A stretch of DNA of 37,631 nt. Origin: an uncultured bacterium (GTDB taxonomy: Bacteria; Verrucomicrobiota; Verrucomicrobiia; Verrucomicrobiales; Akkermansiaceae). Location: NCBI GenBank assembly GCA_965650215.1, contig CBFGOB010000001.1, positions 1 to 37,631 of the forward strand, written 5' to 3'. Of this stretch, positions 7,934 through 37,631 are shown piece by piece (the stretch's first letter is position 1; the number at the start of each line of letters is the position of its first letter). The translations under genes and the position numbers were made by a program. Under the pieces are notes generated by a model that was not told where the DNA came from, ran no database searches, and saw nothing but the letters and a program-made list of their open reading frames with translations.

Positions 7934-8080
7934 GGGTTGTTGGAATGGTGGTTGATGCTTCAAATGACAAAGGGCTGACAGGAGGTATGGCTCACATGCC
8001 GGGTGAATGGGTCATGGCTTCCAGTCCTGTTGAAATCAGTTCAATCCGTGGGACCAGTGGTTTGGGGTCGATGTTTCGGT

Positions 8081-10249: not shown

Positions 10250-10268
10250 GCGCTTTCGGTGTCTGGGT

Positions 10269-18352: not shown

Positions 18353-18382
18353 TGGCGCGGCCAGTCGTCGGTGCGGAAGGGA
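18256..18382. repeat. Diverged direct repeat, copy 2 (3' end of esterase gene, ATGA junction and DUF6807 signal-peptide region)
   Basis: Partner of 15911-16040, offset 2342 bp in the core. Confidence 0.85.
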
Positions 18383-19824: not shown

Positions 19825-19838
19825 GGGTGCCGGGGCAA

Positions 19839-21125
19839 TTATCTGTTAGAGTTGGTTTTGGGCAGTGGGTTGACCGCGATTTCATCGAGGAACAGCGATG
19901 CGTTGCCGAGGTGGAAGGTCAGTTTGATGAACCGCACTTCAGGGCGGCCGATGTCGAAGAACAGCAGGCACGCCTGCGGGCCCGCCATGTCGGGGTCCTT
20001 GCGTTTCGGCTGGAGGGTGAAGCCGTTGTTCCGATGGGTCGCCAGCACCTCATAGTGCTGGCCGTCCTTCGAGGTGGCGAGATCCGCCTTGGCGGGAAAG
20101 CCGATGCCATCCGCTTCGTGGAGCAGCAGATTGGCGGCGATGGCCGCCACGTCCTGCGGCTTGTCCAGATCCACCACCAGCTCCACGGTTTTGGCCGAGG
20201 GCTTGAAAGCGACCCAACCCTTGCCTTTCGGGTCGTTTCCGCTGTAGGTGCCGTCAGTCAGTGCCGCGAGTGCGGCGGGTCCGGCCTCGGGCGTGGTGCC
20301 GCTGCTGCGTTTCCCAATTGCCGCGTGGGTCGAGATCTCGGTCGCGGTGTTGAAGAAGTGGGCGTTGAAGATGGTTTCATCGGGCTTCAGCTGGGGATCG
20401 ATCAGCTTGCAGGCGGCACGGGCAAAGCGCTGCCCGAGCGTCCGGTAGCCGGCATTCGGAAAGTGTTCGCCGTTGGCTTCATAGACGCTCCATGGGTTGA
20501 TGCCCGCATTGAGATCGTCCGTATCGACCCAGGCACCGTTGGCGTTTTCCTCGCCGAGTTTGACCTGGGCCTCGCGCACCGCTTGCTTGCCTGGCGAATG
20601 TTTGCCATTCGGCCGGTGGTCGTTGATGCGGCCCAGCACGAAGCGGATGTCATCGCGGTTCAGGTCGGCCTTGAGCTGGTCGATGATGCCGAGGAAGCTT
20701 TTCCCGTACACCGCCCCCCATCCGGCGCTGCCGTCCGCCTCGCCCTGCATCCAGATGAAGGTGACGCTGGAGAACTTCCGGTCGCCGGCCTTTTTGCGCA
20801 CGTTCTCCATCAGCTTGTCGTAGAGCACCCCGTTCTTTTCCCCCTCCTTGAGTTGGAAAGCGTCACCTTCCGGCGGGGTCCACTTCTTGTACCACTGCCG
20901 GATCGGCTGGCTCGGATGCGAGTGGGTGACGACCGTGACCTGATCCTTGCCGAAGACCTTGGCCACCGCTTCTTCAAACGACTGCGGCAGCGGGTGCCGC
21001 ATGTTCGATTGTCCGGAGAGGATGAAGAGGTGTCCGGAAGCGCCGGTGTCCGATGGCGCAGCGGGCAAGCCACCGGCAAGCGCGAGGCTGCCCAGGACTC
21101 CGGCGAGCTTGCGTTGCAGTTTCAT
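19839..21125 (-). CDS. SASA/CE6-like acetylesterase with C-terminal discoidin/F5-8C-like domain, 428 aa
   Basis: Start ATG 21125 gives a signal peptide. Motifs HLFILSGQSNM, FIWMQGEAD, VDTDDLN and EHFPNAGYRTLGQRFA. C-terminal LTDG..W..LVVDL..RFIKL..LFLDEIAV module. Confidence 0.82.
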   Translation of the reverse strand: MKLQRKLAGVLGSLALAGGLPAAPSDTGASGHLFILSGQSNMRHPLPQSFEEAVAKVFGKDQVTVVTHSHPSQPIRQWYKKWTPPEGDAFQLKEGEKNGVLYDKLMENVRKKAGDRKFSSVTFIWMQGEADGSAGWGAVYGKSFLGIIDQLKADLNRDDIRFVLGRINDHRPNGKHSPGKQAVREAQVKLGEENANGAWVDTDDLNAGINPWSVYEANGEHFPNAGYRTLGQRFARAACKLIDPQLKPDETIFNAHFFNTATEISTHAAIGKRSSGTTPEAGPAALAALTDGTYSGNDPKGKGWVAFKPSAKTVELVVDLDKPQDVAAIAANLLLHEADGIGFPAKADLATSKDGQHYEVLATHRNNGFTLQPKRKDPDMAGPQACLLFFDIGRPEVRFIKLTFHLGNASLFLDEIAVNPLPKTNSNR

Positions 21126-21133
21126 GATGGATT

Positions 21134-23152: not shown

Positions 23153-23328
23153 ACGTGGCGGGAAGTGGCCATGTTGCTTGCGGATGTAGGCTCTTTGCAT
23201 GGAAACTATCCCTTTAACAAGACACTTGTCGTTCATGCGCGGACTCTTGAGGCTCGGTTCAGTGTGGCGGTGATGTCCTGTGGGCCTGGGTTGACCGTGG
23301 TGGCGCTGAAGGTTTGGTTTTGGGAAGA

Positions 23329-23574: not shown

Positions 23575-26262
23575 TTATTGGGGTGGATCGCCAACTCGAG
23601 TCATGGGGATCAGGGTGACGGGGCCGAGCAGGCCGGAGGCTTCGATCGGCCATGACGAGGCGTCGAATCGCTTGTAGTGGTGGTCGACGAAGTTGATGTC
23701 GTGGAACTTTTTCCACGCGATCTTGCGCTGATCGAGATCGCGGATGCGGTTGGCGGAGAGGTTGGTGACCTCGATCTCGATCGTGTTCCCGCCCTCCCGC
23801 AGGAATTCGGTGACGTCCAGGCGGAAGGGATGGGCGATGAGCATGCCGGCGGGTTTGCCGTTGATGCGGATGCGCGCGCTTTCGCGGACCTCGCCGAGGT
23901 CGAGGATCCAGCGGGTCGTGGACTTTGCGGGGGCATTGAGGGTGGTCGAGTAGTTGGCCGTGCCGGCGAAGCGTTTGGCTTCGGGGTCGGCGGATTCCGT
24001 CCACGAGCCAAGTGTGGTAACGCTGGCCGCTGCGGGCAGGACCGGGCCGCCTTCGAGGAAGCGGATGGCCCACGGTCCCGACACCGCGAGGGCTTCGCCC
24101 GCCGGTTGCAGCATGGGCCAGAAGGCTTCGTTGCCCTCCTCGTGTTCCCGGACGCGGAGAATGCGGGACTCGCCCGGCTGGATTTGCAGATGGACGGAGG
24201 TGATTGCGTTTTGGGTCCGCGTGTGAGCCTTGCCGAGGGCGCCGGTCATCGGATCCATGAGAACGGCGGACTTGCAAGGCGCGGTGATCGCTATCCATTC
24301 GTCCACGGGGTTTGCCGACTGGTTGGCGATGAAGTACAGAACCTCACCTGGAAGTTTGCGGCGGATGCATCGGAGCCCGTGGTCCGCCATCGCTTCGCGG
24401 GAGATCCCTGTTTTTGCCATCAGGTCGGCGAGATCGTCGCCGAGCAGGATGCGTCCTTGGCCAAGCGGGGCGATGCCATCCGAAAATTCCAGGCCGTCTA
24501 GCAGCATTTTCAGCTGCTGCTCCCGTTCGTTGTGCTTGTGCCAGCCGGGCACGTTTTGCGGCAGGTGTTTCCAGATCACGATGCTGGCACCGGCATCGGC
24601 GAGTCCGATCAGGTGGCGCACGGTCCCGATGTTCATGAACTGCGCTGCGGGGACCACGATGGTTTGGTAGGTGCTGCCGCCTTGGGTGATGAGCTGTTGG
24701 TTTTGAAAGCGGGTTTGTTCAAGCTGCGAGTCCGAAATGAAGTCGAAGCTGTGGCCCTGTTGCATCAGCCATCGGCCGGCCTCGCCACAGGCCAGGTCTT
24801 CGATCCATGAGGGGCGATGCACCGAGAAGCGTGTTTCGTTTTTTCCGCCGCTCATCCAAAGATCATACACCGGCCAATAGAGCAGGATGTCGTGGTGTGC
24901 TTGCCCTTGCTGGAGGACGCTTTGGCAGCGGGTGAGGTAGGCGTTGAGTGCCGGGATGTCGCGGAAGATGGAGTTGCGTGCGTTCACCTGGGTGGAGGCA
25001 TAGAACAACCAGCCCGGCCACTCGGTTTTCTCCGGCGAATAGCAGGTGCCGTGATAATAGATGCCGTTGATCCCGCAGAGCAGCAGCCGGTCCGCCTCGG
25101 GTTTGAGGTGGGAAAGCGCGGTGTGGAAGTGGTTTCTCAGCCAGGTGAAGCTTTCCGAGATCACGAGGTTCCGCCCGGCCACGTGGGCGGCGGAGGAGGC
25201 GAAGCGGTGGACCATCTCGCTGTGCGGCTGGTCGAGGGATGAATGCGGGTCGCGCCGATAGCCGGGGATGTTGAAGTGGTTGGCCCCGAAGACTTCGGTT
25301 TCCGGAATGCTGGCCGCCGCATACATGTCGAGCAGGTTGGCGGGTGCGCCGTGGGCCTGCATGCGAAGTCCGCTGCCGCGCTCCTCGCTCCAGCCCGCGA
25401 TGTGTCCCACGCATTCCAACAACAGATCCGAGAGGGTTTCGCGGTAGTCGCAGAGGACGCGACGGACTTCTTCGGGATCGCCAGTGCCAGCGAGGGCGGC
25501 GGCGTGGGCGTGGATGTCGTAGCCGCGCGATTGTTCGAAGCGCAGCGGCAGTTCGGGGGCCCAGTTGCCGGGATTCTCGAAGGAGTCGTAGTAGAAGGCC
25601 CGCGGTGGCAGTCCCTTGCCTTCGCGGAAGCGATCGGCCAGCCAATCGAAGTGGAATTTCACCGCCGCCGGGGAATACGGGTTGATGCACAAGCCTGCGC
25701 CGCCGGGACCGGGGCGCTTCACGCGGTCGCGGCGGACGAGGACCTCGATTTTTCCATCCTTCACGGCAAACGAGCGCTCGGAATGTTCCGGGGTGACATG
25801 GGGGCCGCCGAGCCGCCAGCCGGAGGACGGGGTGAGGTCGATGTGCATGCCGAGCCGCCTGGCCTCGTTGACCGTGTGATTGAACATTTGAAACCACTCG
25901 GGGGAGAAAATCGGGATGGTCCGGTTTTCCTCGCCCTTCACGCCGTAGATGCCGATCACGCCCATGTTGCCCCAGCCAGCGTGGCGGTAGGTTTCGAGGT
26001 TCCAGGTCAGATCCTCCCGAGTCACCGCGCTCCCGGGCCACCACCAATAGGATCCGGGACGCGCCTCGGGATGGACTTCCGGCCAGCCGGGCGAAGGGTT
26101 CCCATGGAGGAAATAAGCATCGGGGGGGGGCCAGGCGGGGCTGAGATCGGGCGAGGCCGGGTCGCTCGGCACGGTGGATGGATCGGCGGCGGGCGAGGAC
26201 TGGAGCGCTGCACAGGCGAAGAGCGCAGCGCCCCTTGGCATGATGTGAAGCGGAGTTCTCAT
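23575..26262 (-). CDS. GH106 alpha-L-rhamnosidase-like glycoside hydrolase, 895 aa
   Basis: EARPGSYWWWPGSAVTREDLTWNLE, SGWRLGGP, FYYDSFE, MQAHGAP, IPETEVF, FASSAAH..SESFTW, GINGIYYHG, YLTRCQSVLQQG and C-terminal LDLGEV..SGLLGPVTL. Confidence 0.9.
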   Translation of the reverse strand: MRTPLHIMPRGAALFACAALQSSPAADPSTVPSDPASPDLSPAWPPPDAYFLHGNPSPGWPEVHPEARPGSYWWWPGSAVTREDLTWNLETYRHAGWGNMGVIGIYGVKGEENRTIPIFSPEWFQMFNHTVNEARRLGMHIDLTPSSGWRLGGPHVTPEHSERSFAVKDGKIEVLVRRDRVKRPGPGGAGLCINPYSPAAVKFHFDWLADRFREGKGLPPRAFYYDSFENPGNWAPELPLRFEQSRGYDIHAHAAALAGTGDPEEVRRVLCDYRETLSDLLLECVGHIAGWSEERGSGLRMQAHGAPANLLDMYAAASIPETEVFGANHFNIPGYRRDPHSSLDQPHSEMVHRFASSAAHVAGRNLVISESFTWLRNHFHTALSHLKPEADRLLLCGINGIYYHGTCYSPEKTEWPGWLFYASTQVNARNSIFRDIPALNAYLTRCQSVLQQGQAHHDILLYWPVYDLWMSGGKNETRFSVHRPSWIEDLACGEAGRWLMQQGHSFDFISDSQLEQTRFQNQQLITQGGSTYQTIVVPAAQFMNIGTVRHLIGLADAGASIVIWKHLPQNVPGWHKHNEREQQLKMLLDGLEFSDGIAPLGQGRILLGDDLADLMAKTGISREAMADHGLRCIRRKLPGEVLYFIANQSANPVDEWIAITAPCKSAVLMDPMTGALGKAHTRTQNAITSVHLQIQPGESRILRVREHEEGNEAFWPMLQPAGEALAVSGPWAIRFLEGGPVLPAAASVTTLGSWTESADPEAKRFAGTANYSTTLNAPAKSTTRWILDLGEVRESARIRINGKPAGMLIAHPFRLDVTEFLREGGNTIEIEVTNLSANRIRDLDQRKIAWKKFHDINFVDHHYKRFDASSWPIEASGLLGPVTLIPMTRVGDPPQ

Positions 26263-26302: not shown

Positions 26303-27661
26303 TTATTCCAGGCGGATCACGGTGGCGATGGGGTCGGGCAGTGTCGGGGTGAGGTGGATGATGGCTTGTTCGTCCTTGCGTGTGACCTTGAGGGACCCAC
26401 CATTGGCGAGCAAGGTGGCTTTGGAGCCGGGAAGCGCGATGGTGATCGTGCCATCGGCGGGGCGGGAGAAGAGGTGGAGGTAATGGACCTTGCCTTTGGT
26501 GGTGATGCGGCCGTCGAAGGCCGGGGTGCCGAGCGGTGCTCTGGTGGTGCCGCGGATCGCTTCGGCGTTGGTGTCCATCCATTTGCCGATCGCCGTCATG
26601 GTGTCGATGCTGGGTTGGGGGATGGAACCATCACCCGTGGGTCCGACGTTGAGCAGGAAGTTGCCACCCTTGCTGGCGATGTCGACCAACTTGCGGATGA
26701 TCGCTTCCGGGGATTTCCAGTGGTGGTCGTGCTCGTTGTATCCCCAGGTGCCGTTCATCGTCATGCAGGTTTCCCAGTCTCCTGCGGGGATGTTCTTTGC
26801 GGGGATGTGCTGTTCGGGCGTGATAAAGTCTCCGAATTGGTGATCGAGTGTGGAACCGCTTTTGCCGGTCGCCATGTTCCAACCGGATTCCTCGGTGCGG
26901 AAGAGCCGGTTGTTGATGATGACTGCGGGTTGTTTGGCGCGGACCTTTTGGATCAGATCGAAGGCCCGCCAGCCCTCTTGTCCCTGAAGGTCGGGGGCGC
27001 TGTAGTCGAACCACATGAGGTCCACCTTGCCGTAGTCCGAGATCAACTCATCCACCTGTGCGTGCAGGAAATCGACGTACTTCGCATGGTCGCGGGTGCC
27101 ATTGGGGTAGGGGTCTCCCTTGAGCGGATGCGGGAGGATGTTCGTCCGGTTGTATGCATACTGGTCGTGGTGCCAGTCGATCAGCGAATGATAGAAACCG
27201 ACGCGCAAGCCTTCGGCGCGGCAGGCATCGACGAATTCCCGGACCAGATCGCGGTTCAATGCCGCGCCGGCGTGGAAATCGCCGAACTCCGAATCGTGCA
27301 GGGCGAATCCGTCGTGGTGCTTGGTGGTGAGCACGACATATCCGCATCCGGCGGCTTTCGCGAGCTTGGCCCACTCCGCTGCGAAGCCCGTCTTGGGTTG
27401 CAAGGTGGGAATGGCCGCCTTGGCATAGGAGCCGGTATCGGCCCTGACTTTGAGTGGCACAAAGATGCCCTCGGGCTCATCAGCGGGTTTGCCGTTCCAG
27501 TTGCCGGCGAGACCCGAGTAGATCCCCCAGTGCACGAACATCCCGAAGCGCGCATCGCGCCACCAGGCCATGCGGGCATCGCGATCGGCAGGGGTCTCGG
27601 ACCGGACGCCTGTGACCGACAGAAGCGCAAGCGCGAGGATGCGAAGCGGGATGGATTTCAT
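26303..27661 (-). CDS. GH29 alpha-L-fucosidase family protein (paralogue A), 452 aa
   Basis: WWRDARFGMFVHWG, TTKHHDGF, nucleophile MWFDYS, FITPEQ, WETCMTM and GGNFLLNVGP. Signal peptide from ATG 27661. Confidence 0.93.
   Translation of the reverse strand: MKSIPLRILALALLSVTGVRSETPADRDARMAWWRDARFGMFVHWGIYSGLAGNWNGKPADEPEGIFVPLKVRADTGSYAKAAIPTLQPKTGFAAEWAKLAKAAGCGYVVLTTKHHDGFALHDSEFGDFHAGAALNRDLVREFVDACRAEGLRVGFYHSLIDWHHDQYAYNRTNILPHPLKGDPYPNGTRDHAKYVDFLHAQVDELISDYGKVDLMWFDYSAPDLQGQEGWRAFDLIQKVRAKQPAVIINNRLFRTEESGWNMATGKSGSTLDHQFGDFITPEQHIPAKNIPAGDWETCMTMNGTWGYNEHDHHWKSPEAIIRKLVDIASKGGNFLLNVGPTGDGSIPQPSIDTMTAIGKWMDTNAEAIRGTTRAPLGTPAFDGRITTKGKVHYLHLFSRPADGTITIALPGSKATLLANGGSLKVTRKDEQAIIHLTPTLPDPIATVIRLE
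26543..26721. repeat. 179-bp perfect direct repeat inside GH29 paralogue A; identical to 29994-30172
   Basis: Manual alignment found no mismatch from GGTGGTGCCGCGGATCGC to GGATTTCCAGT. The flanks diverge immediately. Confidence 0.9.
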
Positions 27662-27686
27662 GGGGGTGATCTTAAGCAGAAAAATC

Positions 27687-27815
27687 AATCGCAGCTGAAC
27701 GCGGATGCTAGGATGCCAGGAGACTTGTGAAACATGGGGAATTCGCCCGCTGGGTGAATGCTAGGTTCAACGCGAATCTTTGATGATCTGCGTGAATCTG
27801 CGGCCATCGGCGGTT
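27687..27815. repeat. Degenerate inverted repeat with 10-nt periodic arms (AACCGCAGAT/ATCTGCGGTT type)
   Basis: Left arm AATCGCAGCTGAACGCGGAT (27687-27706). Right arm ATCTGCGTGA-ATCTGCGGCC-ATCGGCGGTT (27786-27815), abutting the stop of the upstream gene. Confidence 0.6.
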
Positions 27816-29707
27816 CAATTGGAGCTGGCGGCTGGTTCAAGGGGCCAAACCCTGACGGACTTGCCGGACAAGGGTTTTTCCAACGGGCCGGGAAACGGAT
27901 TCTCCGGGTTGCGCTTGTTGCCGAAATAATCGGTGTTGATCGTCAGCGGCGAAGCATCGGGATTTTCGTAAGCACCGCCTGTCACTTTCGGCTTGCCGAG
28001 CAGATCGGTGGTCACGGGTTGGCAACGGGCCTTTTCACGCCACTCCTCTTCCGTGTTGAGGGTGAGATGCCAGCCATCGTCTTTCTGCTCGAGCCTCACG
28101 CCCACATCGACCTCCGGCAACGCCAGCGCCGCGGTGTCGAACTTCAGCGGGGTCGCGCCTTTCGGGAAGACATTGCCGGCGGCGAAACACGGCCACATCG
28201 TCGTGTTGATGGGTTTCCGGCGGTCCTCGGCTGCAGTGATGATGTTGTTGTAAAAGCGGTGATCGCCACTGTGGCCATCCGCGCAGGGATGCATTCCCGC
28301 GATCGCCGTGTCATGTGCCTTCAGAAACGGCGTGATGCGGTTGTCGCCCACCATGGAGCGAATCCTTCCCACGATCAAATTGTGCGCGAATGCCATGCCA
28401 ACGGCATTCACGGTCATGGCTGTGCGGGACATGAGCAGATTGTTGGAAAGCAGCATCGGGCCATGCTGCATTTCCAGGAACAGATCCTCGCTGTTGTTGC
28501 GCATCAGATTCCCCTCAAGGCGCACGCCCTGCCCCATCCAGTCCAGCCAGATTCCGGACCGGCTGCAGTTGTAGATATGGTTGTGGCTGATGACCATATC
28601 CACCGCGCCGTGGAACTTGATGCCGGCCATTTCGGCACCGGTGTACAGCTTGCGGACATGGATGTCGTGGATCTCGTTGCCGGTCACGGTGCTGTAGGCG
28701 CAGCCGAGGCTGCCGACGATCCCCGTTTGTTCGCAGTGGGAGATCCTGTTGTTGCGAACCAGATGGCTACCGATGGTTTCCTTGTTCCAACCGTTCTTCA
28801 GCGCGCGTTCGATGGTGGCGACATAGCCGCCGGTTCCGCCTTTCATTTCCTTCTGCAGCCATTCCGGCTTGTCCCTGATCGCCTCACCATTGTCCCATTC
28901 ATCGCCGTATTTCCCCAACGCCACGCCGGCGCATGGAGAATACGCGATGCGGTTGTTCTCGATGATCCAGCCCTTGCACCAGTAGGCGGTGATGATCCCG
29001 ATCTGCGCGGCGGTGGGAGGCGCCCACGGCGAGGCGGCAGCCCGCAACTCGAAGCCCCGCACGGTCAGGTAATTGATGCCTGTTTTCGACGGCGTGAACA
29101 CGGTTTTGCGGACGTTGATCTCCACATTCTTCTCGTTCGGATCGACGTCCTTGAACTGTGCGAGGATCGTGGTGTTCGCATCATCCACCGTGGCAAACCA
29201 GAATGGATTGTTGCCAACCGGCTTCATCACTTCCTCCTGTTTGACGGTTTCCGTGAGCCAGTGCCCGTCGAGATACACCGCGCCGGTGTGGTAGCCACCG
29301 CGATTGCCGCACCAGTCGCCACGAACGACATCCGAGAACGGATTGAAATCGCCGAAGAACGTGTTCGGAAGGATCACCTTCCAGGTGTCATTCGAGACCT
29401 TCGTCCAGCCTTTGACCGGCTCAGCGCCGGTGATGACGGCCTTTGCTCCCGCAGCGGCCTGATAGATGATGCGTTTCTCATCCGACGCGCCGCCCCGCGG
29501 CGGGTCAATCCGCTCGCGATAGATGCCTTCATGAACGGTGATGGTGTCGCCGGGCCGGGCGACATCGGCGGCACGCTGGATCGTGCGAAACGGCTTGTTT
29601 TCCGTGCCAGGGTTCCCGTCATCCCCCTTCGGGGCGACGTGGATTTCCGCGGCATGGGCAAGCGCCGAAGCGAGGGTGATGAGGGTCAGGTATTGGGCCG
29701 TTTTCAT
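27815..29707 (-). CDS. GH120-like beta-xylosidase (DUF1565 / right-handed beta-helix), 630 aa
   Basis: EIHVAPKGDDGNPGT..PFRTIQRAA..PGDTITVHEGIYRERIDPPRGG, VEINVRKTVF, WAPPTAAQIG, KGWIIENN, IGSHLVRNN, GAEMAGIKFHG and GIWLDW. Has a signal peptide. Confidence 0.85.
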   Translation of the reverse strand: MKTAQYLTLITLASALAHAAEIHVAPKGDDGNPGTENKPFRTIQRAADVARPGDTITVHEGIYRERIDPPRGGASDEKRIIYQAAAGAKAVITGAEPVKGWTKVSNDTWKVILPNTFFGDFNPFSDVVRGDWCGNRGGYHTGAVYLDGHWLTETVKQEEVMKPVGNNPFWFATVDDANTTILAQFKDVDPNEKNVEINVRKTVFTPSKTGINYLTVRGFELRAAASPWAPPTAAQIGIITAYWCKGWIIENNRIAYSPCAGVALGKYGDEWDNGEAIRDKPEWLQKEMKGGTGGYVATIERALKNGWNKETIGSHLVRNNRISHCEQTGIVGSLGCAYSTVTGNEIHDIHVRKLYTGAEMAGIKFHGAVDMVISHNHIYNCSRSGIWLDWMGQGVRLEGNLMRNNSEDLFLEMQHGPMLLSNNLLMSRTAMTVNAVGMAFAHNLIVGRIRSMVGDNRITPFLKAHDTAIAGMHPCADGHSGDHRFYNNIITAAEDRRKPINTTMWPCFAAGNVFPKGATPLKFDTAALALPEVDVGVRLEQKDDGWHLTLNTEEEWREKARCQPVTTDLLGKPKVTGGAYENPDASPLTINTDYFGNKRNPENPFPGPLEKPLSGKSVRVWPLEPAASSN

Positions 29708-29753
29708 GTCTTCAAATGGTTCAAGGATTTGTCTTTCTGGATTTGAGGAAGGA

Positions 29754-31112
29754 TCATTCCAGGCGGATCACGCTGGCGATGGGATCGGGGAGGGTCGGCG
29801 GAAGGTGGATGATCGCTTGTTCGCCCTTGCGCGCGACCTTGAGGACCTCTCCACTGGTCAGCAGGGTGGCCTTGGTGCCGGGAAGCTTGATGGAGATCTC
29901 GCCGGTGGCGGGGCGGGAGAAGAGGTGGAGGTAGTGGGTTTTTCCTTTGGTGGTGATGCGGCCGTCGAAGTTGGGAATGCCGAGCGGTGATTGGGTGGTG
30001 CCGCGGATCGCTTCGGCGTTGGTGTCCATCCATTTGCCGATCGCCGTCATGGTGTCGATGCTGGGTTGGGGGATGGAACCATCACCCGTGGGTCCGACGT
30101 TGAGCAGGAAGTTGCCACCCTTGCTGGCGATGTCGACCAACTTGCGGATGATCGCTTCCGGGGATTTCCAGTCCTGATCGTGCACCGAATACCCCCAGAC
30201 CCCGTTCATGGTCATGCAGGTTTCCCAATCCGCTTCAGATATTCCGCTTTCGGGGATGTGTTGTTCCGGCGTGATGAAGTCGCCAAATTGGGTGTCGAGC
30301 GTGGTGCCGCTGGAACCGGTTTTCACGTTCCATCCCGCCTCTTCGCTGCGGAAGAGCCGGTTGTTCATGATGATGCCCGGCTGTTTTGCCCGGACCATCT
30401 TCATCAAGTCGAAGGCACGCCATGCTTCCTGTCCCTGAAAGTCCGGTGCGCTGTAATCGAACCACATGACATCCACCTTGCCATAGTTTGAAAGCAGTTC
30501 ATCCACCTGGGTGTGAAGATAGTCGACGTATTTCGCATGCTCGCGAAGGCCGTTTGGGTAGGGTTTGCCCTTGAGCGGATGATGAAGCGTCGTTGAACGG
30601 TTGTATTCATACTGGTCGTGATGCCAGTCGATCAGCGAATGATAGAAACCGACGCGCAGGCCTTCGGCGCGGCAGGCATCGACGAATTCACGGACCAGAT
30701 CCCGCTCCAGTACCGAGCCGGCGTCGAAATCACCGGCCTTCGAATCATGAAGGGCGAAGCCATCGTGGTGTTTGGTGGTCAGCACCACGTAGCGGCAGCC
30801 GGCGGCTTTCGCGAGCTTGATCCATTCGCGTGCGAATCCCGCCTTGGGACTGAACTGCTGAATGCCGGCCTTGGCATAAACAGCCGTGTCCACCTTGGCT
30901 TTCAATGGGATGGAGATCGAGTCGGGATCAACGATCATCCTGCCATTCCAGTTGCCGGCGAGACCGGAGTAGAGTCCCCAGTGGACAAACATCCCGAAGC
31001 GTGCCTCCCTCCACCAGGACATGCGGGCATCACGATCCGCCGCGGTTTCGGCCCGGACGCAGGAGGCTGACAGAAAAAGCAGGGCGAAGGTGCGCAGGAG
31101 GCTGGATTTCAT
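29754..31112 (-). CDS. GH29 alpha-L-fucosidase family protein (paralogue B), 452 aa
   Basis: WWREARFGMFVHWG, TTKHHDGF, MWFDYS, FITPEQ and GGNFLLNVGP. Signal peptide from ATG 31112. Confidence 0.93.
   Translation of the reverse strand: MKSSLLRTFALLFLSASCVRAETAADRDARMSWWREARFGMFVHWGLYSGLAGNWNGRMIVDPDSISIPLKAKVDTAVYAKAGIQQFSPKAGFAREWIKLAKAAGCRYVVLTTKHHDGFALHDSKAGDFDAGSVLERDLVREFVDACRAEGLRVGFYHSLIDWHHDQYEYNRSTTLHHPLKGKPYPNGLREHAKYVDYLHTQVDELLSNYGKVDVMWFDYSAPDFQGQEAWRAFDLMKMVRAKQPGIIMNNRLFRSEEAGWNVKTGSSGTTLDTQFGDFITPEQHIPESGISEADWETCMTMNGVWGYSVHDQDWKSPEAIIRKLVDIASKGGNFLLNVGPTGDGSIPQPSIDTMTAIGKWMDTNAEAIRGTTQSPLGIPNFDGRITTKGKTHYLHLFSRPATGEISIKLPGTKATLLTSGEVLKVARKGEQAIIHLPPTLPDPIASVIRLE
29994..30172. 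repeat. 179-bp perfect direct repeat inside GH29 paralogue B; identical to 26543-26721
   Basis: See partner copy; offset 3451 bp. Confidence 0.9.
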
Positions 31113-31156
31113 GGGAGTGGGGATTCGAGGTGGGAGACCGTCCGGATGCAAGCGGA

Positions 31157-32515
31157 TCACTCGAGGCGGATGACCGTTGCCACCGGATCGGGCAATGCCG
31201 GAGGAAGCTGGATCACGGCCCGTTCGCCATTGCGCCATGCCTTGAGGGCTTGATTTTCATGCAGCAATGTCGCCTTGGTGCCGGGAAGCTTGATGGAGAT
31301 CTCGCCGCTGGCGGGGCGGGAGAAGAGGTGGAGGTAATGGGCCTTCCCTTTGGCCGTGATGCGGCCGTCGAAGTCCGGCAGGCCGATCGGTGATCTGGTG
31401 GTGCCGCGGATCGCTTCGGCGTTGGTGTCCATCCATTTGCCGGTGGCCGTCATGATATTGACGCTCGGTTGTGGGATCGAACCGTCAGCGGTCGGTCCGA
31501 TGTTGAGGAGGAAGTTGCCGCCCTTGCTGGCGATGTCGATGAGGGTGCGGATGATCGTTTCCGGCGACTTCCAGTTGTGATCGTATTCGCTGAATCCCCA
31601 GGTGCCGTTCATCGTCATGCAGGTTTCCCAGTCCATTCGGGCGTCAAAGGCGTTGGGGACATGCTGTTCGGGGGTGGCAAAATCACCAAAGCCCCCATCG
31701 AGCGGACGGCTGATGTCGGCACCGCCATCGATGCTGAAGCCTGCTTCCGGTCGGCGGAACAGGCGGTTGTTCATGATGAGGTGCGGCTGTTTTTTGCGGC
31801 ACTTGTCCATCAAGTCGCCGGCCCTCCACGCCTCGTCTCCGTCAAAGCCGAACGAGCTGTAATCCCACCAGACGATGTCCACCTTGCCGTAGTTCGACAT
31901 CAATTCATCGACCTGGCCATGAAGGAAATCGACGTAGCGGTTGTGGTCGCGCGGGCCGTGACTCATCCGTATGCCGTCTTTGGGGTAAGACGGAGCGGTG
32001 GCCTTGGTGTAATCGTATTGCGGGTGGTGCCAATCGATCACCGAGTGGTAGAAACCGACACGCAGGCCCTCCTTGCGCAGCGCCCCGGTGATTTCCCGGA
32101 CCAGGTCGCGGTTGAGCACATCACCGGCATCGAACTGGGTGAGCTTCGAATCGTGCAAGGCGAAGCCATCGTGGAATTTGGTGGTGAACACCACATACTG
32201 GCAGCCGGCCTGCCGGGCGAGTTTCGCCCATGCGGTGGCAAAGTCCGGTTTTGGTTGGAAATCCGGGATGGTTGCGGCGGCGTAGCTGTGGGTATCCGCA
32301 TCGACCAGCCGTTGCGTGTGTTCCAGGTTCTGGTCGCCGGGCACCGGCTTGCCCTTCCATGTTCCGGCCAGTGACGAATAGAGTCCGTAGGTGACGAACA
32401 TTCCGAAGCGCGCCTCGCGCCACCAGGCCATGCGGGCATCACGATCCATCCCGGCCCGCGCTCCCGTGGCGAAGCACAGGGACAAGGAGCCAATTTGAAG
32501 CAGCTTGGATTTCAT
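31157..32515 (-). CDS. GH29 family protein with atypical -1 subsite (paralogue C), 452 aa
   Basis: FGMFVTYG (normally VHWG), TTKFHDGF (normally KHHDG), VWWDYS, FATPEQ and GGNFLLNIGP. Signal peptide from ATG 32515. Confidence 0.92.
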   Translation of the reverse strand: MKSKLLQIGSLSLCFATGARAGMDRDARMAWWREARFGMFVTYGLYSSLAGTWKGKPVPGDQNLEHTQRLVDADTHSYAAATIPDFQPKPDFATAWAKLARQAGCQYVVFTTKFHDGFALHDSKLTQFDAGDVLNRDLVREITGALRKEGLRVGFYHSVIDWHHPQYDYTKATAPSYPKDGIRMSHGPRDHNRYVDFLHGQVDELMSNYGKVDIVWWDYSSFGFDGDEAWRAGDLMDKCRKKQPHLIMNNRLFRRPEAGFSIDGGADISRPLDGGFGDFATPEQHVPNAFDARMDWETCMTMNGTWGFSEYDHNWKSPETIIRTLIDIASKGGNFLLNIGPTADGSIPQPSVNIMTATGKWMDTNAEAIRGTTRSPIGLPDFDGRITAKGKAHYLHLFSRPASGEISIKLPGTKATLLHENQALKAWRNGERAVIQLPPALPDPVATVIRLE

Positions 32516-32550
32516 CGGACTGCTAGAGATCCACAGGGTGGGGGTGAAGA

Positions 32551-33603
32551 TCAGTTGCGATCGGCGGCTTCCGCCTTGCGGATCATGTTCCCGACCTCGC
32601 GGAGGGTTTGGAGGTCGATTTCCCGGAGTTTGCCTTCCGGGTTGGGGCCGACGTTGAGGGAGAAGATGTTGCCGAATTTGCGTGCGCCCTGGTAGTCCGC
32701 GAAAATTTTCGCGGCCGGATGGCACAGGTTGTCGTGTTCAGGCAGCGAGTAGAACCACTCCGCGCCGCCCTTGTGGTCCGGCAGGATCGGGTAGGTGAAT
32801 TCGGCGAGGAGGTAGCCGCGGTAATTCGTCTCCGCGTCCTTGTTGTAGCGGGTGGTGCTGGCATCGCCGATTTTTCCCGGGCGGCCTTTTTCCCGGAGGT
32901 TGAGTCGTCCGGCGGGTTCGCCGTGGTTGAAGCCGACGAAGCTGTTGGGTTGGAATTGGTGAACCCACCGGACGGTGTCCGCGTGGGACAGGCCGCCGTT
33001 ACCGGTCGCATGGTCCATCCACCAGAATTCGATCGGGCCGTAGCGGGTGAGCAGCTCCTTGAGCTGGGCTTTTTTCATTTCCGGATTCACGCCACCTTCC
33101 ATGCCGAGGCCGTTTCCCCCCTTGCCATCCTTGGCGCCGGGCCAGTTCCAATCGCCTTCGGAGAAATAGAGCGCCAGCTTCAGCCCATGTTTGTCGCAGG
33201 ATTTCTTCAGTTTTGCGAGGACATCGATGCCGAGCGGGCTGTTGGTGACCTTCTTGTCGGTGGTTTCGGTGTCCCACAGGCAAAAGCCGTCGTGATGCTT
33301 CGCGAGAAAAAGGATGTAGCCCATTCCGGCGTCCTTGGCGGTCTGGCACCATTGATCGGTGTCGCATCCGGTCACCTTGAAGTAGGAGGCATCCTTGTCC
33401 TGCGTCGGCGTCCATTCACGGCCGGAAAACGTGCTGAACGACCAACAGACGAACATGCCCCAGCGGAGGTCGAGGATCTGTTGGGCGCGCACCTCGTCGG
33501 GCAGGCGGGCCTGGGGGGTATGGTTTTCTGCGGCAACCGGAAGGATCGATACGGCAATCCACATGACCGCGAGACGGATGATGGGGGAGAAGGAGGATTT
33601 CAT
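32551..33603 (-). CDS. Divergent single-domain GH29 family protein (paralogue D), 350 aa
   Basis: LRWGMFVCWSFSTFSGREW, DTDQW, LAKHHDGFCLWDT, QLKELLTRYGPIEFWWMD and LNVGPNPEG. No C-terminal beta-sandwich. Signal peptide MKSSFSPIIRLAVMWIAVSILPVAA from ATG 33603. Confidence 0.88.
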   Translation of the reverse strand: MKSSFSPIIRLAVMWIAVSILPVAAENHTPQARLPDEVRAQQILDLRWGMFVCWSFSTFSGREWTPTQDKDASYFKVTGCDTDQWCQTAKDAGMGYILFLAKHHDGFCLWDTETTDKKVTNSPLGIDVLAKLKKSCDKHGLKLALYFSEGDWNWPGAKDGKGGNGLGMEGGVNPEMKKAQLKELLTRYGPIEFWWMDHATGNGGLSHADTVRWVHQFQPNSFVGFNHGEPAGRLNLREKGRPGKIGDASTTRYNKDAETNYRGYLLAEFTYPILPDHKGGAEWFYSLPEHDNLCHPAAKIFADYQGARKFGNIFSLNVGPNPEGKLREIDLQTLREVGNMIRKAEAADRN

Positions 33604-33786
33604 GAAATCGAGATCGCGGACAATGCCATCTGGGGTCACGCAGCCGTTCCGCCACCGCCAGCACACCCGGGGACGTGCCGGGCTTGGCGGTTTTTTGAAA
33701 TCGGACGCAAACTCTTCTGCATCCACAGCGCGCATGGGAGCGATATGATCAGCAGGGATGAATGGTTCATGTTCAAGTGATGACAT
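33604..33786 (-). pseudogene. Relic N-terminus of a GH106-type glycosidase gene, in frame with the start of GH29 paralogue D
   Basis: Translates AEEFASDFKKPPSPARPRVCWRWRNGCVTPDGIVRDLDFMK, matching the GH106 N-terminal pattern F..PP..ARP..WW.W..G.VT..GI..DL..MK (compare EARPGSYWWWPGSAVTREDL in the intact GH106 here). A signal-like MNHSSLLIISLPC (ATG 33770) lies upstream in a shifted frame. Confidence 0.72.
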
Positions 33787-33848
33787 ATGGTCGGTTGTTC
33801 AAGCTGGTGTGGACCATCGCTCCCAGCGCTCCAGGATCCAGGACGCGC

Positions 33849-35198
33849 CTATTCCAAGCGGATCACCGTGGCGATGGGATCGGGGAGTGCCGGAGGAAGA
33901 TGGATGACGGTCTGGTTTTCATGCCGGGTGAGCTTGAGGGTCTCTCCACCGGCCAACAGTTTTGCCGTGTTGCCCGGAAAGGCGACGGTGATCGTGCCGT
34001 CGGCGGGGCGTGAGAAGAGGTGGAGGTAATGGACCTTCCCTTTCGTCGTGACGCGGCCGTCGAAGTTCGGCAGGCCGACGGGTGACTTCGTGGTGCCGCG
34101 GATTGCCTCGGCGTTGGTATTCATCCACTTGCCGGTGGCGGTCATGATGTCGATGCTGGGTTGTGGGATCGAGCCGTCGCCCGTGGGTCCGATGTTGAGC
34201 AGGTAATTGCCGCCCTTGCTGGTGATGTCGATGAGGGTGCGGATGATCGTTTCCGGCGACTTCCAGTGATGGTCGTGTTCGCTGAAGCCCCAGGTGCCGT
34301 TCATGGTCATGCAGGTTTCCCAGTCCATCCTGGCATCGAAGGCATCGGGAACGTGCTGTTCGGGGGTGCCGAAGTCGCCGAATTTCACATCGAGCGGACG
34401 GCTGATGTCAGCACCGCCGCTGTTGCTCGCCCCCGATTCGGGGCGGCGGAACAACCGGTTGTTCATGATGATCTGCGGTTGTTTCTCACGACACATCGCG
34501 ATCAGGTCGGTGGCGCGCCAAGCCTTGTCGCCATCGAAGCCGGGCCAGCTGTAGTCCCACCAGACGATGTCCACCTTGCCGTAATTCGTCATCAGCTCGC
34601 GGGTCTGGCCGTGGAGGAAATCGATGTAGCGCTGGTGGTTGCGGGTGCCGGGGTTGAGCAGCTTTCCGCGTTCCGGATAAGGCAGCTTGCCGGCATTGGC
34701 GAAGTCATACTGCGGGTGGTGCCAATCGATGAGCGAATGGTAGAAGCCGACGCGCAGGCCCTCCTTGCGCAGCGCCTCGGTGATTTCGCGGACCAGGTCG
34801 CGGTTGAGGAGGTCGCCGGCGTCGTATTGGGTGAGCTGCGAGTCATGCAGGGCGAAGCCGTCGTGGTGCTTGGTGGTGAAGACGACGTAGCTGCAGCCGG
34901 CCTGCTTCGCGAGGCGTGCCCATTCGGTGGCGAATCCCGGTTTCGGGGTGAACCTGGGGATGGCGGCGCGGGCGTATTCGTGGGTGTCGGCACCGACGAA
35001 TTTCTGGATCCATTCCATGCCGCCACCTTTTGCCGCCTTGCCCTCCCAGGTCCCGGCGAGCCCGGAGTAGAGTCCCCAGTGGACGAACATGCCGAAGCGG
35101 GCTTCGCGCCACCAGGCGATGCGGGTGTCGCGGTCGATCTCGGCGGCGGCCGCGAATCCTGCGAGGAGGAGAGAGAGGCTGGCGATGCGTGGAATCAT
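33849..35198 (-). CDS. GH29 alpha-L-fucosidase (paralogue E, canonical active site), 449 aa
   Basis: FGMFVHWG, MEWIQ, TTKHHDGF, VWWDYS, FGTPEQ and GGNYLLNIGP. Has a signal peptide. Confidence 0.94.
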   Translation of the reverse strand: MIPRIASLSLLLAGFAAAAEIDRDTRIAWWREARFGMFVHWGLYSGLAGTWEGKAAKGGGMEWIQKFVGADTHEYARAAIPRFTPKPGFATEWARLAKQAGCSYVVFTTKHHDGFALHDSQLTQYDAGDLLNRDLVREITEALRKEGLRVGFYHSLIDWHHPQYDFANAGKLPYPERGKLLNPGTRNHQRYIDFLHGQTRELMTNYGKVDIVWWDYSWPGFDGDKAWRATDLIAMCREKQPQIIMNNRLFRRPESGASNSGGADISRPLDVKFGDFGTPEQHVPDAFDARMDWETCMTMNGTWGFSEHDHHWKSPETIIRTLIDITSKGGNYLLNIGPTGDGSIPQPSIDIMTATGKWMNTNAEAIRGTTKSPVGLPNFDGRVTTKGKVHYLHLFSRPADGTITVAFPGNTAKLLAGGETLKLTRHENQTVIHLPPALPDPIATVIRLE

Positions 35199-35241: not shown

Positions 35242-37631
35242 TCACTTGCGTTTCAGGACGAACCACGGGCATTTCCAACTGTTGCCGTTTTTGCTCTGGA
35301 AGCCGCCGGCCTCGATGAAGAGGTAATCGCTGCCGTTGCGCGATTCGACGCGCATCTGGAGCGCTTCGTTCTTGCGAAGATCCATGAGCATGTCCCCGGA
35401 CCAGATGAGCAGCAGGTCGCCGGTCGAACCGTCGGGTTTCAATTCGAGCGCTTGCAGCGGTGCGCGTTTGGCTTCCCCCGGCGTTGCCGGATCGAATTCG
35501 GCGGGATCGGTGACGGTGCCCACGGTTTGCCATGAGCCGGCGAGTTTCGGGTTGGCGGCGAAGCTTCCATCCCAGAGGAATTTGCCTGCTGCCGGGTCGA
35601 GGTCGTTGGCATCGGGGTCCTGCAGGGCCTGCCATGCCGAGGAAGTCATCGGCAGCGCGCTGGCGGACTGGACGATTTCCTTTTCGGTGAGCGCAGGCAT
35701 TTCAAACTCCTGGATCCAGAGCATCAGCTGGCGGCTTTGGATGCCCTTGTGGTTGCCCATGAAGCCGATGTAGGCGATGTCCGTCTCGCCATTCTGGAAC
35801 TCCGGCCACCAGTCGCGGTGAATGTGGCCGCCGAAGGGTTTCGCTCCGCCGCGGCGGTCGACCTTGCTCTTGTTTTCGAAGAACAGCTTGCCGTTGATGT
35901 AGAGGCGTCCGCCTTCGCCGGCACCGACGTGGGACATGCCGCCGAGGCGGAGTTCGTAGCGGTGGCCTTCCTTGAATTTCGGGAACTTGAACTTGCCGCG
36001 CAGCAGCAGGACCTCCTTTTCCCAGAGGGTTTTCGCCGGTTCGCCGTGGCGGCAGAAGTCCAGCGGGCAGGCCCCTGCCTTGGATGCGAGCTTGCCGTTG
36101 ACCGCGCCGAAGGGCTGCAGTCCGGATTTCCAACCGGCCTTGGCCGGATCAAAGGACGGCTTGAACCAATCGTCGAGTCCCTGCGGCAGGGTGATCGGGC
36201 GATAGCGGGGTTTTTCCAGATCCCAGGCCTGCTTTTCGGGCGGATCGAAGCTCAGGTAGTGGAAGCCCATCTCGGTCGGCTTCGGGCCAAAGTCGCGCCA
36301 CTGGTAGCTGTCGACGCCGATCCGGCGGTAGAGATCCGCGAGCTCGAGCGTTTTGGCGCTGCGGTAGTGATAACTGGCCGGGATCATTTCGTTGCTCATC
36401 TCCTTGAGCAGGAATTCGCGGTTTTCGCCGATGAAGCGCGGGATGAGGCGGGTCTTGATGAGTCGTCCGACCTCTTTTTTCAGCTCCGGGCTGAATTGTT
36501 CCGGGTCGGCCTTGAGGAAGAGCTCTTCGTAGGGAAGCGTGGTGCCGGGACTGCGTTCCTTGGCAACCTGATAGAGCACATCGAATCCCCCGGGGACGTT
36601 CGCGATCGTCTCGGCGAGGAATTCGCGGATCGTCGGATTGACCGTGGTGTTGACCTGTTCGATCGGGTGTTTGTATTCGATGTAATTGGCGTAGGCTTCC
36701 TTGAATGACTCGCGGGCAAGAGCCTGGACTTCCGGCGAGGCGTTTTTGAGCATTTCGGGCATTTTGCCCCAGCGGATCGGGTTGACGATGCCGTAGACAT
36801 GGTTGTTTTGCAGCAGCTTGCCGATGGCGGGCAGGACTTTCTGATAGCAGCGGAGGTCGGCGACCACGGGGGTCAGCGCATAGAGCGCGGAATTCTGGAA
36901 CCACCACTCCTCATGGGCAAGGTAAGGGATGATGATGTCGACCTGGGAGGCGATCCAATCCTGTGGCGCGCGTGCGGCGACCAGCAGGGCCATGTCCTTC
37001 ACGAACCAGGACTCCTTGGGGTCTGACAGCATCGTGCGCAGGCGTTCCAGGCGGGCCGGGCTCAGCTCGCCGTCCTTCTCCAGATACTCGAGGGCGGTGC
37101 GGCGGACGCGGGCGTCGTCGTGGGCGAGCAAGCCGTCGAGCAGGGAGGCATCGTGCTGGCCGATCTCGTCGCGGTAAATCGTGCGCACCCCGTAGTTCGG
37201 ATGATGGAGGAAATGGAGGAGTTGTTCGCGCGTGCGCTTGGTGGCGCCTTTGGTCGATATGAGCGCGAGCCCGGTCGATGTCGCGAAGTTTTCCTTGGAG
37301 AGGTCGGGCACGCTGCCGTCGGGGAGTTTGGCGCCGACGATCGATTCGAAATCGTCGTCTTCCGCCGTGCCCCAGGGGCGTTCGGGGAGCTGATAGGGTT
37401 TCGAGAATTTCGTGGGGGGTGCGCCGGTCAGGCGCAGGGTTTTGCGCGGGACGGTGAAGGTCAGCGCGTATCCCGCGCCCCATTCCGGGTTGTCGTAGCG
37501 TTCGCCGCCGAGGATGCCGAAGGATCCATCGAAGCGGCGGGAGAGTTCATAGTGCCATTTGCGGTTCTCCATGAATTCGCGGTAGTGTTTCGGCGTTTTT
37601 TCATGGAGCAGTCCCATCGACGCGCTGCGCC
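35242..37631 (-). CDS. Large DUF6288-like protein with HEAT/ARM-like helical region; 5' end outside window
   Basis: Frame is open to the window edge (..RSASMGLL..). WHYELSRRFDGSFGILGG..YALTFTVPRKTLRLTG resembles DUF6288 proteins. HEAT-like LLAHDDARVRRTAL and LSDPKESWFVKD are followed by beta-rich C-terminal modules. Confidence 0.62.
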   Translation of the reverse strand, partial: RSASMGLLHEKTPKHYREFMENRKWHYELSRRFDGSFGILGGERYDNPEWGAGYALTFTVPRKTLRLTGAPPTKFSKPYQLPERPWGTAEDDDFESIVGAKLPDGSVPDLSKENFATSTGLALISTKGATKRTREQLLHFLHHPNYGVRTIYRDEIGQHDASLLDGLLAHDDARVRRTALEYLEKDGELSPARLERLRTMLSDPKESWFVKDMALLVAARAPQDWIASQVDIIIPYLAHEEWWFQNSALYALTPVVADLRCYQKVLPAIGKLLQNNHVYGIVNPIRWGKMPEMLKNASPEVQALARESFKEAYANYIEYKHPIEQVNTTVNPTIREFLAETIANVPGGFDVLYQVAKERSPGTTLPYEELFLKADPEQFSPELKKEVGRLIKTRLIPRFIGENREFLLKEMSNEMIPASYHYRSAKTLELADLYRRIGVDSYQWRDFGPKPTEMGFHYLSFDPPEKQAWDLEKPRYRPITLPQGLDDWFKPSFDPAKAGWKSGLQPFGAVNGKLASKAGACPLDFCRHGEPAKTLWEKEVLLLRGKFKFPKFKEGHRYELRLGGMSHVGAGEGGRLYINGKLFFENKSKVDRRGGAKPFGGHIHRDWWPEFQNGETDIAYIGFMGNHKGIQSRQLMLWIQEFEMPALTEKEIVQSASALPMTSSAWQALQDPDANDLDPAAGKFLWDGSFAANPKLAGSWQTVGTVTDPAEFDPATPGEAKRAPLQALELKPDGSTGDLLLIWSGDMLMDLRKNEALQMRVESRNGSDYLFIEAGGFQSKNGNSWKCPWFVLKRK

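Follow-up and report, generated by a model that had tools for sequence, protein, structure and literature searches.

The window, the whole 37,631-nt stretch of DNA analysed here, comes from a freshwater-type bacterium and carries five GH29 genes, designated A to E, within a run of genes on the same strand (Table 1). An earlier note had reported five GH29 genes at this place; all five open reading frames lie on the minus strand, matched Pfam PF01120 (E-values 5.5e-32 to 9e-81, 112–272 bits; curated cut-off, 25.2) and contained no stops or frameshifts. Among the neighboring products, the Gfo/Idh/MocA oxidoreductase matched glycoside 3-dehydrogenase below the cut-off. Fucose isomerase and BMC shell genes were present in the genome. 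Parts of the gene run recurred elsewhere: DUF6288 relatives were also found close to the GH29 genes of L024, L102 and G245; the A-type gene of G245 was accompanied by esterases, GH95 and GH2, homologues of two of the three acetylesterases coming after it; and in L021 a GH120-like gene (85% identical) was located between E-type and A-type genes.

Table 1. Features of the GH29 gene run (positions in the window)
Feature	Position	Strand	Remarks
Protein with beta-helix and PDZ domain	5516-7963	(-)	together with the LamG gene (5516..10414), distal end of the same-strand run
LamG-domain protein	8081-10414	(-)	see preceding row
GH95 glycosidase gene	10269-12677	(-)	
GH2 glycosidase gene	12711-16010	(-)	
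DUF6807 protein and Gfo/Idh/MocA oxidoreductase	16062..18421	(-)	
Three SASA-family (PF03629) acetylesterase genes	18349..23236	(-)	21134-23236, 19839-21185, 18349-19824
GH106 alpha-L-rhamnosidase-family gene	23575..26262	(-)	directly downstream of A
GH29 gene A	26303..27661	(-)	452 aa; hydrophobic leader by inspection; likely start 27661
179-nt tract in A	26543..26721	(-)	same sequence as B at 29994-30172
Pocket loop codons of A (Glu64-Gly65-Ile66-Phe67)	27461..27472	(-)	unchanged at the protein level in two orthologues for which DNA was available
GH120-like beta-helix protein	27815..29707	(-)	between B and A
GH29 gene B	29754..31112	(-)	452 aa; likely start 31112; 78% identical to A
GH29 gene C	31157..32515	(-)	452 aa; likely start 32515
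GH29 gene D	32551..33603	(-)	350 aa, catalytic domain only; likely start 33603
GH29 gene E	33849..35198	(-)	449 aa; likely start 35198; canonical pocket; 72% identical to C
DUF6288/HEAT protein	35242..37617	(-)	upstream of E; reaches contig end

The catalytic motifs were as the earlier note had read them. The nucleophile Asp of all five (WFD in A and B, WWD in C and E, WMD in D) lies at the end of strand 4 and aligned with Asp186 of 6GN6, and the TPEQ Glu of A, B, C and E aligned with Glu239. The models of A and C matched GH29 structures with a (beta/alpha)8-type catalytic fold. The full HWG/EW/KHHDG set was confined to E; C has TYG, EH and KFHDG, with the codons ACC-TAC and TTC as claimed, and D has CWS. 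Residue roles in the -1 subsite were taken from Table 10 of PMC11796335 and transferred to A–E via the alignment of E with 6GN6, which places the substituted residues among the hydrogen-bond partners of that subsite. The axial O4 partners, His34 and His128, are kept in A, B and E, both gone in C, and His34 is gone in D; the O3/O2 partners, Glu66 and Trp67, are kept in D and E, both gone in A and B, and Trp is gone in C. The O2 partner His129 is kept in all five, as are the C6-methyl pocket columns Phe32, Trp222 and Trp/Phe290 in A, B, C and E, with matching residues in D. As judged from sequence, A–E are likely to be intact GH29 enzymes inside a glycan-degrading gene cluster, with retaining hydrolysis predicted. 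The note had discounted single-base errors in C; sequencing or assembly error was ruled out by recurrence of the variants in other protein clusters and by a near-identical strain in run X1, in which the pocket codons of A and C were the same and those of B differed by one silent change. X1 and the source sample may be connected. No RNA data set was listed as containing the sequence.

Motifs DEPEGIF in A and DPDSIS in B were present as described, but their reading as EG and DS in place of EW is probably not right. By register, the Glu-Trp pair is likely replaced by Ile66-Phe67 in A, with an acid, Glu64, two residues upstream, and likely by Ile66-Ser67 in B, with Asp64 as the upstream acid. This register was based on a gapless alignment and on the helix start in AlphaFold models (helix 65–71 in A, 64–70 in C); one MAFFT alignment agreed with it and two others gapped the Glu column, so that it is likely, not certain. 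A keeps His44, His115, His116, Tyr157, Trp217, Asp219, Arg252, Glu283 and Trp306, and B keeps the catalytic residues. A and B would have lost both O3 partners and kept the O2 and O4 histidines, the cavity of B being presumably the larger. Two of the six changes fixed in the A/B clade fall on pocket columns, a weak enrichment (P 0.06).

Among 333 clade relatives, 293 had a canonical pocket, and A/B-type and C-type pockets occurred in 7 and 4 other protein clusters, respectively, the A/B-type and C-type relatives being 66–85% identical. An A-, a B- and a C-type cluster each list a 130,378-bp contig, presumably the same one. The catalytic Asp, the Arg, the Tyr and both pocket Trp were invariant in the clade (333/333 each), and the Glu nearly so (332/333). 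With A as query, a close clade member was found in 11 of 400 family genomes, an A-type match in G245 only; with C as query, a close clade member was found in 11 of 208 other genus genomes, exceeding 700 bits in G245 only.

In C, the equivalents of His34, Trp35, Trp67 and His128 are Thr42, Tyr43, His66 and Phe114, and Glu65, His115, Asp218, Arg251 and Glu283 are kept. The earlier note proposed that A and B open the O2/O3 side and that C and D remodel the O4 side; C alters the O2/O3 side (Trp to His) in addition to O4. Three of the seven changes fixed in the C clade lie on pocket columns, which make up 12 of 165 conserved columns (P 0.009, post hoc). Clade pockets form a graded series: EW (293), EH (17), Thr+EH (2), Thr+EH+Tyr (1) and Thr+EH+Phe (4). 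The change of His34 to Thr/Val together with His128 to Phe was found again in a separate lineage of five (AU p 4e-5), and the sequences indicate that the paired O4-histidine loss arose twice, convergently. C and E are neighbors, 72% identical and three pocket contacts apart, with natural intermediates; E, with its canonical pocket, is a built-in control and likely removes plain fucose.

D has Cys53 at the His34-equivalent position and keeps Glu-Trp, both KHH histidines, the nucleophile Asp197 and Arg233; the Cys was invariant (121 of 121). Its candidate acid/base residues are Glu238 (121/121) and Glu268 (120/121). A Glu stands five positions past the conserved Arg, which would match the GH29B spacing. 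The first loop of D aligned without gaps to 4ZRX and 3UES, and GH29A and GH29B chains scored alike (96–102 bits). A plasmid search with D as query gave only matches below 60% identity. Trees built with the pocket columns left out placed A+B and C+E in different clades, and D, only 29% identical, belongs to a separate, widespread subfamily. The five genes therefore represent three lineages, not the one paralogue array first described, and identities and trees rule out a single recent tandem expansion.

We propose, with a probability of roughly 0.45, that A–D act as exo-enzymes on fucose with an O-methyl or similar cap, the cap being at O3 for A and B and at O4 for C and D, with E as a plain fucosidase. 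A–D would be retaining exo-glycosidases acting on L-fucose with a small substituent, for which an O-methyl ether is the likeliest candidate. The nucleophile, the adjacent Arg and Tyr, the aromatic C6-methyl pocket and, in A, B, C and E, the Glu acid/base are all retained, and the side chains that hydrogen-bond one particular hydroxyl are replaced by smaller or apolar residues. With the O3 partners lost and the O2 and O4 histidines kept, A and B would take 3-O-methyl-L-fucose; with both O4 histidines replaced (Thr, Phe) and the O2/O3 Trp shrunk to His, C would take 4-O-methyl or di-O-methyl fucose; D, losing one O4 His to Cys, would show a milder O4-side change. The neighboring genes suggest as target a heteropolysaccharide (slime of algae, cyanobacteria or bacteria) that is secreted, O-acetylated and free of sulfate and has a high content of 6-deoxy sugars, from which the esterases would remove acetyl groups while methyl ethers would persist and require glycosidases of their own. 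Botryococcus exopolysaccharide is reported to contain 3-O-methylfucose (PMC8750022, excerpt). A sulfated substrate is disfavored, since no basic residue was gained and none of the 29 sulfatase matches in the genome was on the contig. With lower probability, the cluster may read methylation position by position, A and B taking 3-O-methyl, C 4-O- or di-O-methyl, D a second O4 modification and E bare fucose; such sequence-predicted enzymes would be the first GH29 methyl-fucosidases, reached through stepwise, convergent and traceable pocket mutations. The literature searched, in the parts available, reported no O-methyl-fucosidase activity in GH29, its passages on methyl-fucose concerning GH139.

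All five enzymes may instead be alpha-L-fucosidases that differ in linkage or aglycone or in how far a branch on the fucose is accepted, the loop after strand 1 having been rebuilt so that Glu64/Asp64 (A/B) and His66 (C) replace the lost contacts. All three histidines are kept in A and B, whose acid stands three residues before Phe/Ser, the spacing of the E-I-G-W loop of another GH29 protein of the same genome (G000:C146), and the upstream acid could restore the O3 contact, which counts against capped fucose. Of 153 domains in the wider group, 30 deviate, mostly at Glu/Trp, the commonest deviation in distant relatives; GH29A linkage preference varies widely (PMC11189522, excerpt), and a canonical E is retained alongside. 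However, this explanation is unlikely: none of the 153 distant representative domains shares the loss of both O4 histidines, which makes C hard to explain, and true fucosidases have invariant O4 histidines (PMC9774334, excerpt). Moreover, the Ser of B could not replace an indole contact, and the five best PDB alignments of the G000:C146 protein show adjacent Glu-Trp and in no case E-x-x-W.

Another explanation is that A–D cut other 6-deoxy-L-sugars. For A and B these would be colitose or an N-acetyl sugar (L-FucNAc, for example), for C and D a C4 epimer, for example L-quinovose, and for C alternatively a sugar like L-rhamnose. Colitose is a 3-deoxy sugar, L-quinovose a C4 epimer, and L-rhamnose is changed at C2 and C4. 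Epimers and deoxy sugars suit the identical contact losses, an argument against capped fucose; the apolar Ile-Phe for both O3 partners in A suits a 3-deoxy sugar well, a GH106 rhamnosidase adjoins, and loss of His34 has already given GH29 L-glucosidases/L-quinovosidases. Among these are ClAgl29A/B, alpha-L-glucosidases of Cecembia lonarensis (7XSF–7XSH), a precedent for pocket retuning that is 22–23% identical to C. Their signature is Asp34, Asp66 and Phe125 with His128 kept, whereas C has Glu66 and Thr125 and loses His128; the Asp34/Asp66/Phe125 set was found in none of A–E, and Thr125 was present in 333 of 333 clade members. His129, in all five, favors an equatorial O2 together with Trp67, and ClAgl29 enzymes with both residues barely cut pNP-L-Rha. 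Cys variants of His34 showed no real L-glucoside activity. Such specificities are, on the whole, unlikely. The literature searched reported no GH29 acting on colitose. L-Galactoside specificity likewise lacked its published signature: BpGH29, an exo-alpha-L-galactosidase (7LJJ/7LK7) and also a GH29 enzyme with shifted -1 specificity, is changed at O6 (Asp327), and the matching column is Cys in 6GN6 and in 332 of 333 relatives, so that it does not separate A–C from E.

That A–D are slow or dead enzymes retained as scaffolds or for binding glycans, or else duplicates in decay, is very improbable in spite of the very low rates of published His34 variants (PMC9774334, excerpt), an inactive Verrucomicrobium GH139 proposed as a binding protein (PMC12282258, excerpt) and the slightly higher dN/dS of A than of E, because frames are intact, catalytic residues are invariant, identical replacements persist across 15–34% divergence with a convergent origin, and dN/dS between orthologues is at most 0.20. 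Pairwise NG86 estimates for 10 genes, with dS biased by high GC and no B-type or true C-type orthologue pair among them, were 0.17–0.20 for the A orthologues and 0.11 for E, the intervals of A and E overlapping; C, compared with the nearest relative for which DNA was available, gave 0.15. The earlier note would have been refuted if A–D were simply inactive and under relaxed selection; relaxed selection does not fit, given that purifying selection preserves the variants in other genomes. Decay is effectively excluded, whereas a binding role keeps a low probability.

The best sequence and fold match of A, C and E was aLfuk1, the GH29A alpha-L-fucosidase of Paenibacillus thiaminolyticus (6GN6; E-value 6e-90 with E, 37–38% identity across A, C and E, TM 0.83 with the A model, and Z 47.4 and rmsd 2.1 over 407 with the C model). 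Like A, C and E, it has the nucleophile, the PEQ acid/base, the Arg, the Tyr, the C6 pocket and a C-terminal beta-sandwich, but its full His/Glu/Trp/His/His set is shared by E only, and the first loops and leaders are longer in A–C. The earlier note's interpretation is supported in part, and its idea has a precedent: in 2022, His34 substitutions including Thr and Cys were listed and five such enzymes assayed (PMC9774334, excerpt). These verrucomicrobial GH29s of Coraliomargarita akajimensis, several close in locus number, carry Cys (Caka_0506, Caka_0536), Val (Caka_0522, 0523) or Phe (0074) and showed at most 12 nmol/min/mg on pNP-Fuc/Glc/Gal (same excerpt). The Cys of Caka_0506 and Caka_0536 is the change of D, the likeness being to the described residue only; that account, in its available part, concerns His34 and does not describe Glu/Trp or His128 variants. 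Their near-inactivity is consistent with a missing substrate, and equally with poor enzymes; with the C/E pair, this substrate question becomes directly testable.

GH139 BT0984, a 2-O-methyl-alpha-L-fucosidase, shows that cleaving methylated fucose calls for an enzyme of its own, one whose -1 pocket is reshaped, but it differs from GH29 in fold and in its inverting mechanism, and the same excerpt states that GH29 targets unmethylated fucose only (PMC12282258). Genome surveys of glycan degraders count GH29 genes as plain fucosidases (PMC13668718, excerpt); if some GH29 enzymes cut methylated or altered 6-deoxy sugars, such counts are misleading, and these enzymes would add to the tools with which slime polysaccharides of algae and bacteria are sequenced. 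A–E are a good set for enzyme discovery. Finally, the tract identical between A and B covers codons 314–373, away from the pocket motifs, and is likely the result of gene conversion.

The five GH29 genes A–E belong to a same-strand run that encodes, in order, a DUF6288 protein, GH29 E, D, C and B, a GH120-like protein, GH29 A, a GH106, three SASA-family acetylesterases, a DUF6807 protein, a Gfo/Idh/MocA oxidoreductase, a GH2, a GH95, a LamG protein and a beta-helix/PDZ protein. Contig C1, all of which is the window, is part of a 3.0-Mb draft genome that carries fucose isomerase and BMC shell genes. The closest named relatives of the cluster proteins were from Luteolibacter and other Verrucomicrobiota, and the best-matching sequencing run was a freshwater sediment metagenome. 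None of the 13 GH29 matches in the genome contained an internal stop. Eight lay outside the window; one was a fragment and the other seven retained the first pocket His (four were fully canonical), indicating that in this assembly loss of His34 (Thermotoga maritima numbering) is confined to the cluster.

Every motif and codon that the earlier note had listed for A–E was found in the sequence. Contig pieces from X1, a sequencing run with a near-identical strain, spanned the pocket regions at >99% identity. Those over A, B and C differed from the window at 16, 2 and 2 positions, respectively, and a pocket-loop codon was hit only once, silently, in B. Because a relation between X1 and the source sample is possible, recurrence of the variants in other proteins is the stronger control.

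The best solved relative, by both sequence and fold, was aLfuk1 (6GN6), which the predicted models of A (pLDDT 92.8) and C (pLDDT 91.8) matched with a TM of 0.83 and a Z of 47.4 (rmsd 2.1 over 407 residues), respectively. In aLfuk1, the sugar is contacted by His23 (O4), Glu34 (O3), Trp35 (O2 and O3), His82 (O4 or O3) and His83 (O2); Asp186 is the nucleophile and Glu239 the acid/base, Tyr125 and Arg218 are also listed, and Phe21, Trp184 and Trp267 form the C6 pocket (Table 10, PMC11796335). Counting along the E/6GN6 alignment matched each of these residues, the TPEQ Glu among them, to its anticipated motif in E. A and B retain His34, His128 and His129 and lack Glu66-Trp67. The loop at this position is as long in A and B as in E and aligns without gaps, and helix starts in the models agree, which suggests that Glu-Trp is replaced by Ile-Phe in A and Ile-Ser in B and that the acid lies two residues upstream. 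Since larger MAFFT alignments placed a gap in this loop and the A and C models were driven by alignments with many canonical rows, this register is likely rather than shown. The C pocket has Thr34, His67 and Phe128; that of D is changed only at Cys34.

Among 333 non-duplicate relatives, a sample biased towards A and C kin (the queries), 293 were canonical, 17 had His67 alone, two Thr34 and His67, five were of the C type (Phe128 in four, Tyr128 in one), nine were of the A/B type and two were unreadable. The remaining five formed a further type with Val/Thr34, Phe128 and Gly/Cys129. The catalytic and C6-pocket columns were invariant (the acid/base Glu in 332/333). A 130,378-bp contig, listed by an A-, a B- and a C-type protein cluster, is presumed to carry the gene cluster a second time. 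Another locus, L021, has consecutive E-type, GH120-like and A-type genes (83–88% identity), and G245, another genome of the genus, carries GH95, A-type, two esterase and GH2 genes (48–84%). Pairwise dN/dS was 0.17–0.20 among three A genes, 0.18 for B and one A orthologue, 0.15–0.22 for C and His67-type relatives and 0.11 for E. In post hoc tests, pocket columns held 3/7 fixed clade changes for C (P 0.009), 3/11 for the further type (P 0.03) and, weakly, 2/6 for A/B (P 0.06). A single clade of the C and further types, a grouping picked after seeing the first tree, was rejected (AU p 4e-5), indicating that the pair His34 to Thr/Val and His128 to Phe arose twice. Of 153 domains drawn from 150 representatives as a wider background, 123 were canonical and the other 30 differed mostly at Glu/Trp; His34 differed in two, His128 in three and both in none, which makes C the unusual variant. 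Changes such as those in A/B are more common. The pocket variants are real, conserved and selected, within a known family.

The further type (loci in L023, L024 and L026, and proteins P0141 and P0168) keeps Glu-Trp and lacks the O2 and O4 partners with O3 retained, as would be expected of an enzyme for L-rhamnose or a 2,4-disubstituted fucose. Some of its GH29 domains are parts of long multi-domain ORFs. The P0141 cluster comprises 22 proteins, of which one carries the name hexosaminidase. The 17 relatives with Trp67 to His alone (P0004, P0009–P0028; mostly KHHE) may represent an O2/O3 variant, and their state appears ancestral to that of C. A recurring O3-side variant, Glu66 to Ser or Cys with Trp67 kept (Tyr in P0366), occurred in the distant relatives P0347, P0348, P0353, P0361, P0366, P0408, P0409 and P0432.

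The five genes had been read as one paralogue array, which the phylogeny does not bear out. A, B, C and E are 62–78% identical, whereas D is 29% identical to A and belongs to a large subfamily of its own (all 120 matches listed were 69–85% identical, with names from Planctomycetota, Bacteroidota, Kiritimatiellae and KSB1), in which Cys34 was present in 121/121. When the pocket columns were left out of the trees, which used 68 of the 333 rows and then 38 of those 68 (quick method, SH-aLRT only), A and B fell in a clade of nine (support 99–100) and C and E in another. E nested within the His67 group, so it may either have regained Trp or had its backbone homogenised with C. Exact tracts of 179 nt (A/B), 49 nt (A/C) and 44 nt (C/E), all in the C-terminal third, and sharing below 179 nt between B and C, are likely to reflect gene conversion that spared the pocket motifs. 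The 179-nt tract may alternatively be a collapsed assembly; the X1 pieces listed break around both copies, as at a real repeat.

The retaining machinery is intact by homology and the methyl pocket is kept, so a 6-deoxy-L-hexose at a chain end is the probable target of cleavage. Each variant would exchange one hydroxyl's partners for smaller or greasy side chains, as a capped hydroxyl needs. The earlier note had A and B opening O2/O3 and C and D remodelling O4; with the O2 and O4 histidines kept in A and B, the change there would concern O3, that in C O4 together with a looser O2/O3 side, and that in D, weakly, O4. A methyl cap is favoured over acetyl, which the cluster esterases would remove, and over sulfate, since no basic residue was gained and none of the genome's 29 sulfatase matches is on contig C1. 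That the variants are instead compensated fucosidases differing in linkage preference seems rather unlikely. Colitose and L-quinovose are deoxy or epimeric sugars, and cleavage of such deoxy, amino or epimeric sugars by A–D is unlikely. Non-catalytic binding is improbable.

Both 3-O-methylfucose and 3-O-methylrhamnose are reported from Botryococcus slime (PMC8750022). Variation of this kind is already published: L-glucosidases were discovered by the same His34-variant approach, with 14 residues, Thr and Cys among them, listed at His34, and five Coraliomargarita His34 variants had very low activity, their substrates being left open (PMC9774334). ClAgl29 was extended to L-quinovoside, with little L-rhamnoside activity (PMC11368710). 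According to PMC12282258, methylfucose is not a GH29 substrate, and for the 2-O-methyl form GH139 is the sole known family. The open-access text searched contained no report of a GH29 methyl-fucosidase, of these pocket types, of their stepwise and convergent history or of their co-location with a canonical control. The cluster setting makes the pocket variants easy to test.

Directly upstream of the D start, in frame, 34 residues match the GH106 N-terminus (30.4 bits; cut-off 29) with weak likeness to the cluster's own GH106; the stretch is probably what is left of a rhamnosidase gene since lost. In L023, a relative of the LamG protein (70% identity) is joined in frame to a GH29 of the Val34/Phe128/Gly129 type. 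An ORF group facing the glycan cluster, which we take to be of the pilin/pseudopilin type typical of Verrucomicrobiota, includes a 1005-aa ORF with no Pfam match.

Coordinates of the features (window positions unless a contig or locus is named)
Feature	Position	Strand
Same-strand gene run	37617 to 5516	-
GH29 A	26303..27661	-
GH29 B	29754..31112	-
GH29 C	31157..32515	-
GH29 D	32551..33603	-
GH29 E	33849..35198	-
179-nt tract, A and B copies	26543-26721 = 29994-30172	
Silent X1 difference (B)	30918	
GH106-like stretch	33595-33696	-
LamG protein	8081-10414	
LamG relative	L023:2526-4610	
Further-type GH29	L023:4608-5993, L024:8596-9963, L026:1353-2717	
Three other GH29 genes of this genome (G000) with non-standard first loop or no KHHDG match, His34 kept	G000:C146:5181-6737, C21:8603-9589, C289:3156-4118	
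ORF group	461-5306	+
N-methyl motif ORF	307-1683	
1005-aa ORF	1637-4654	+
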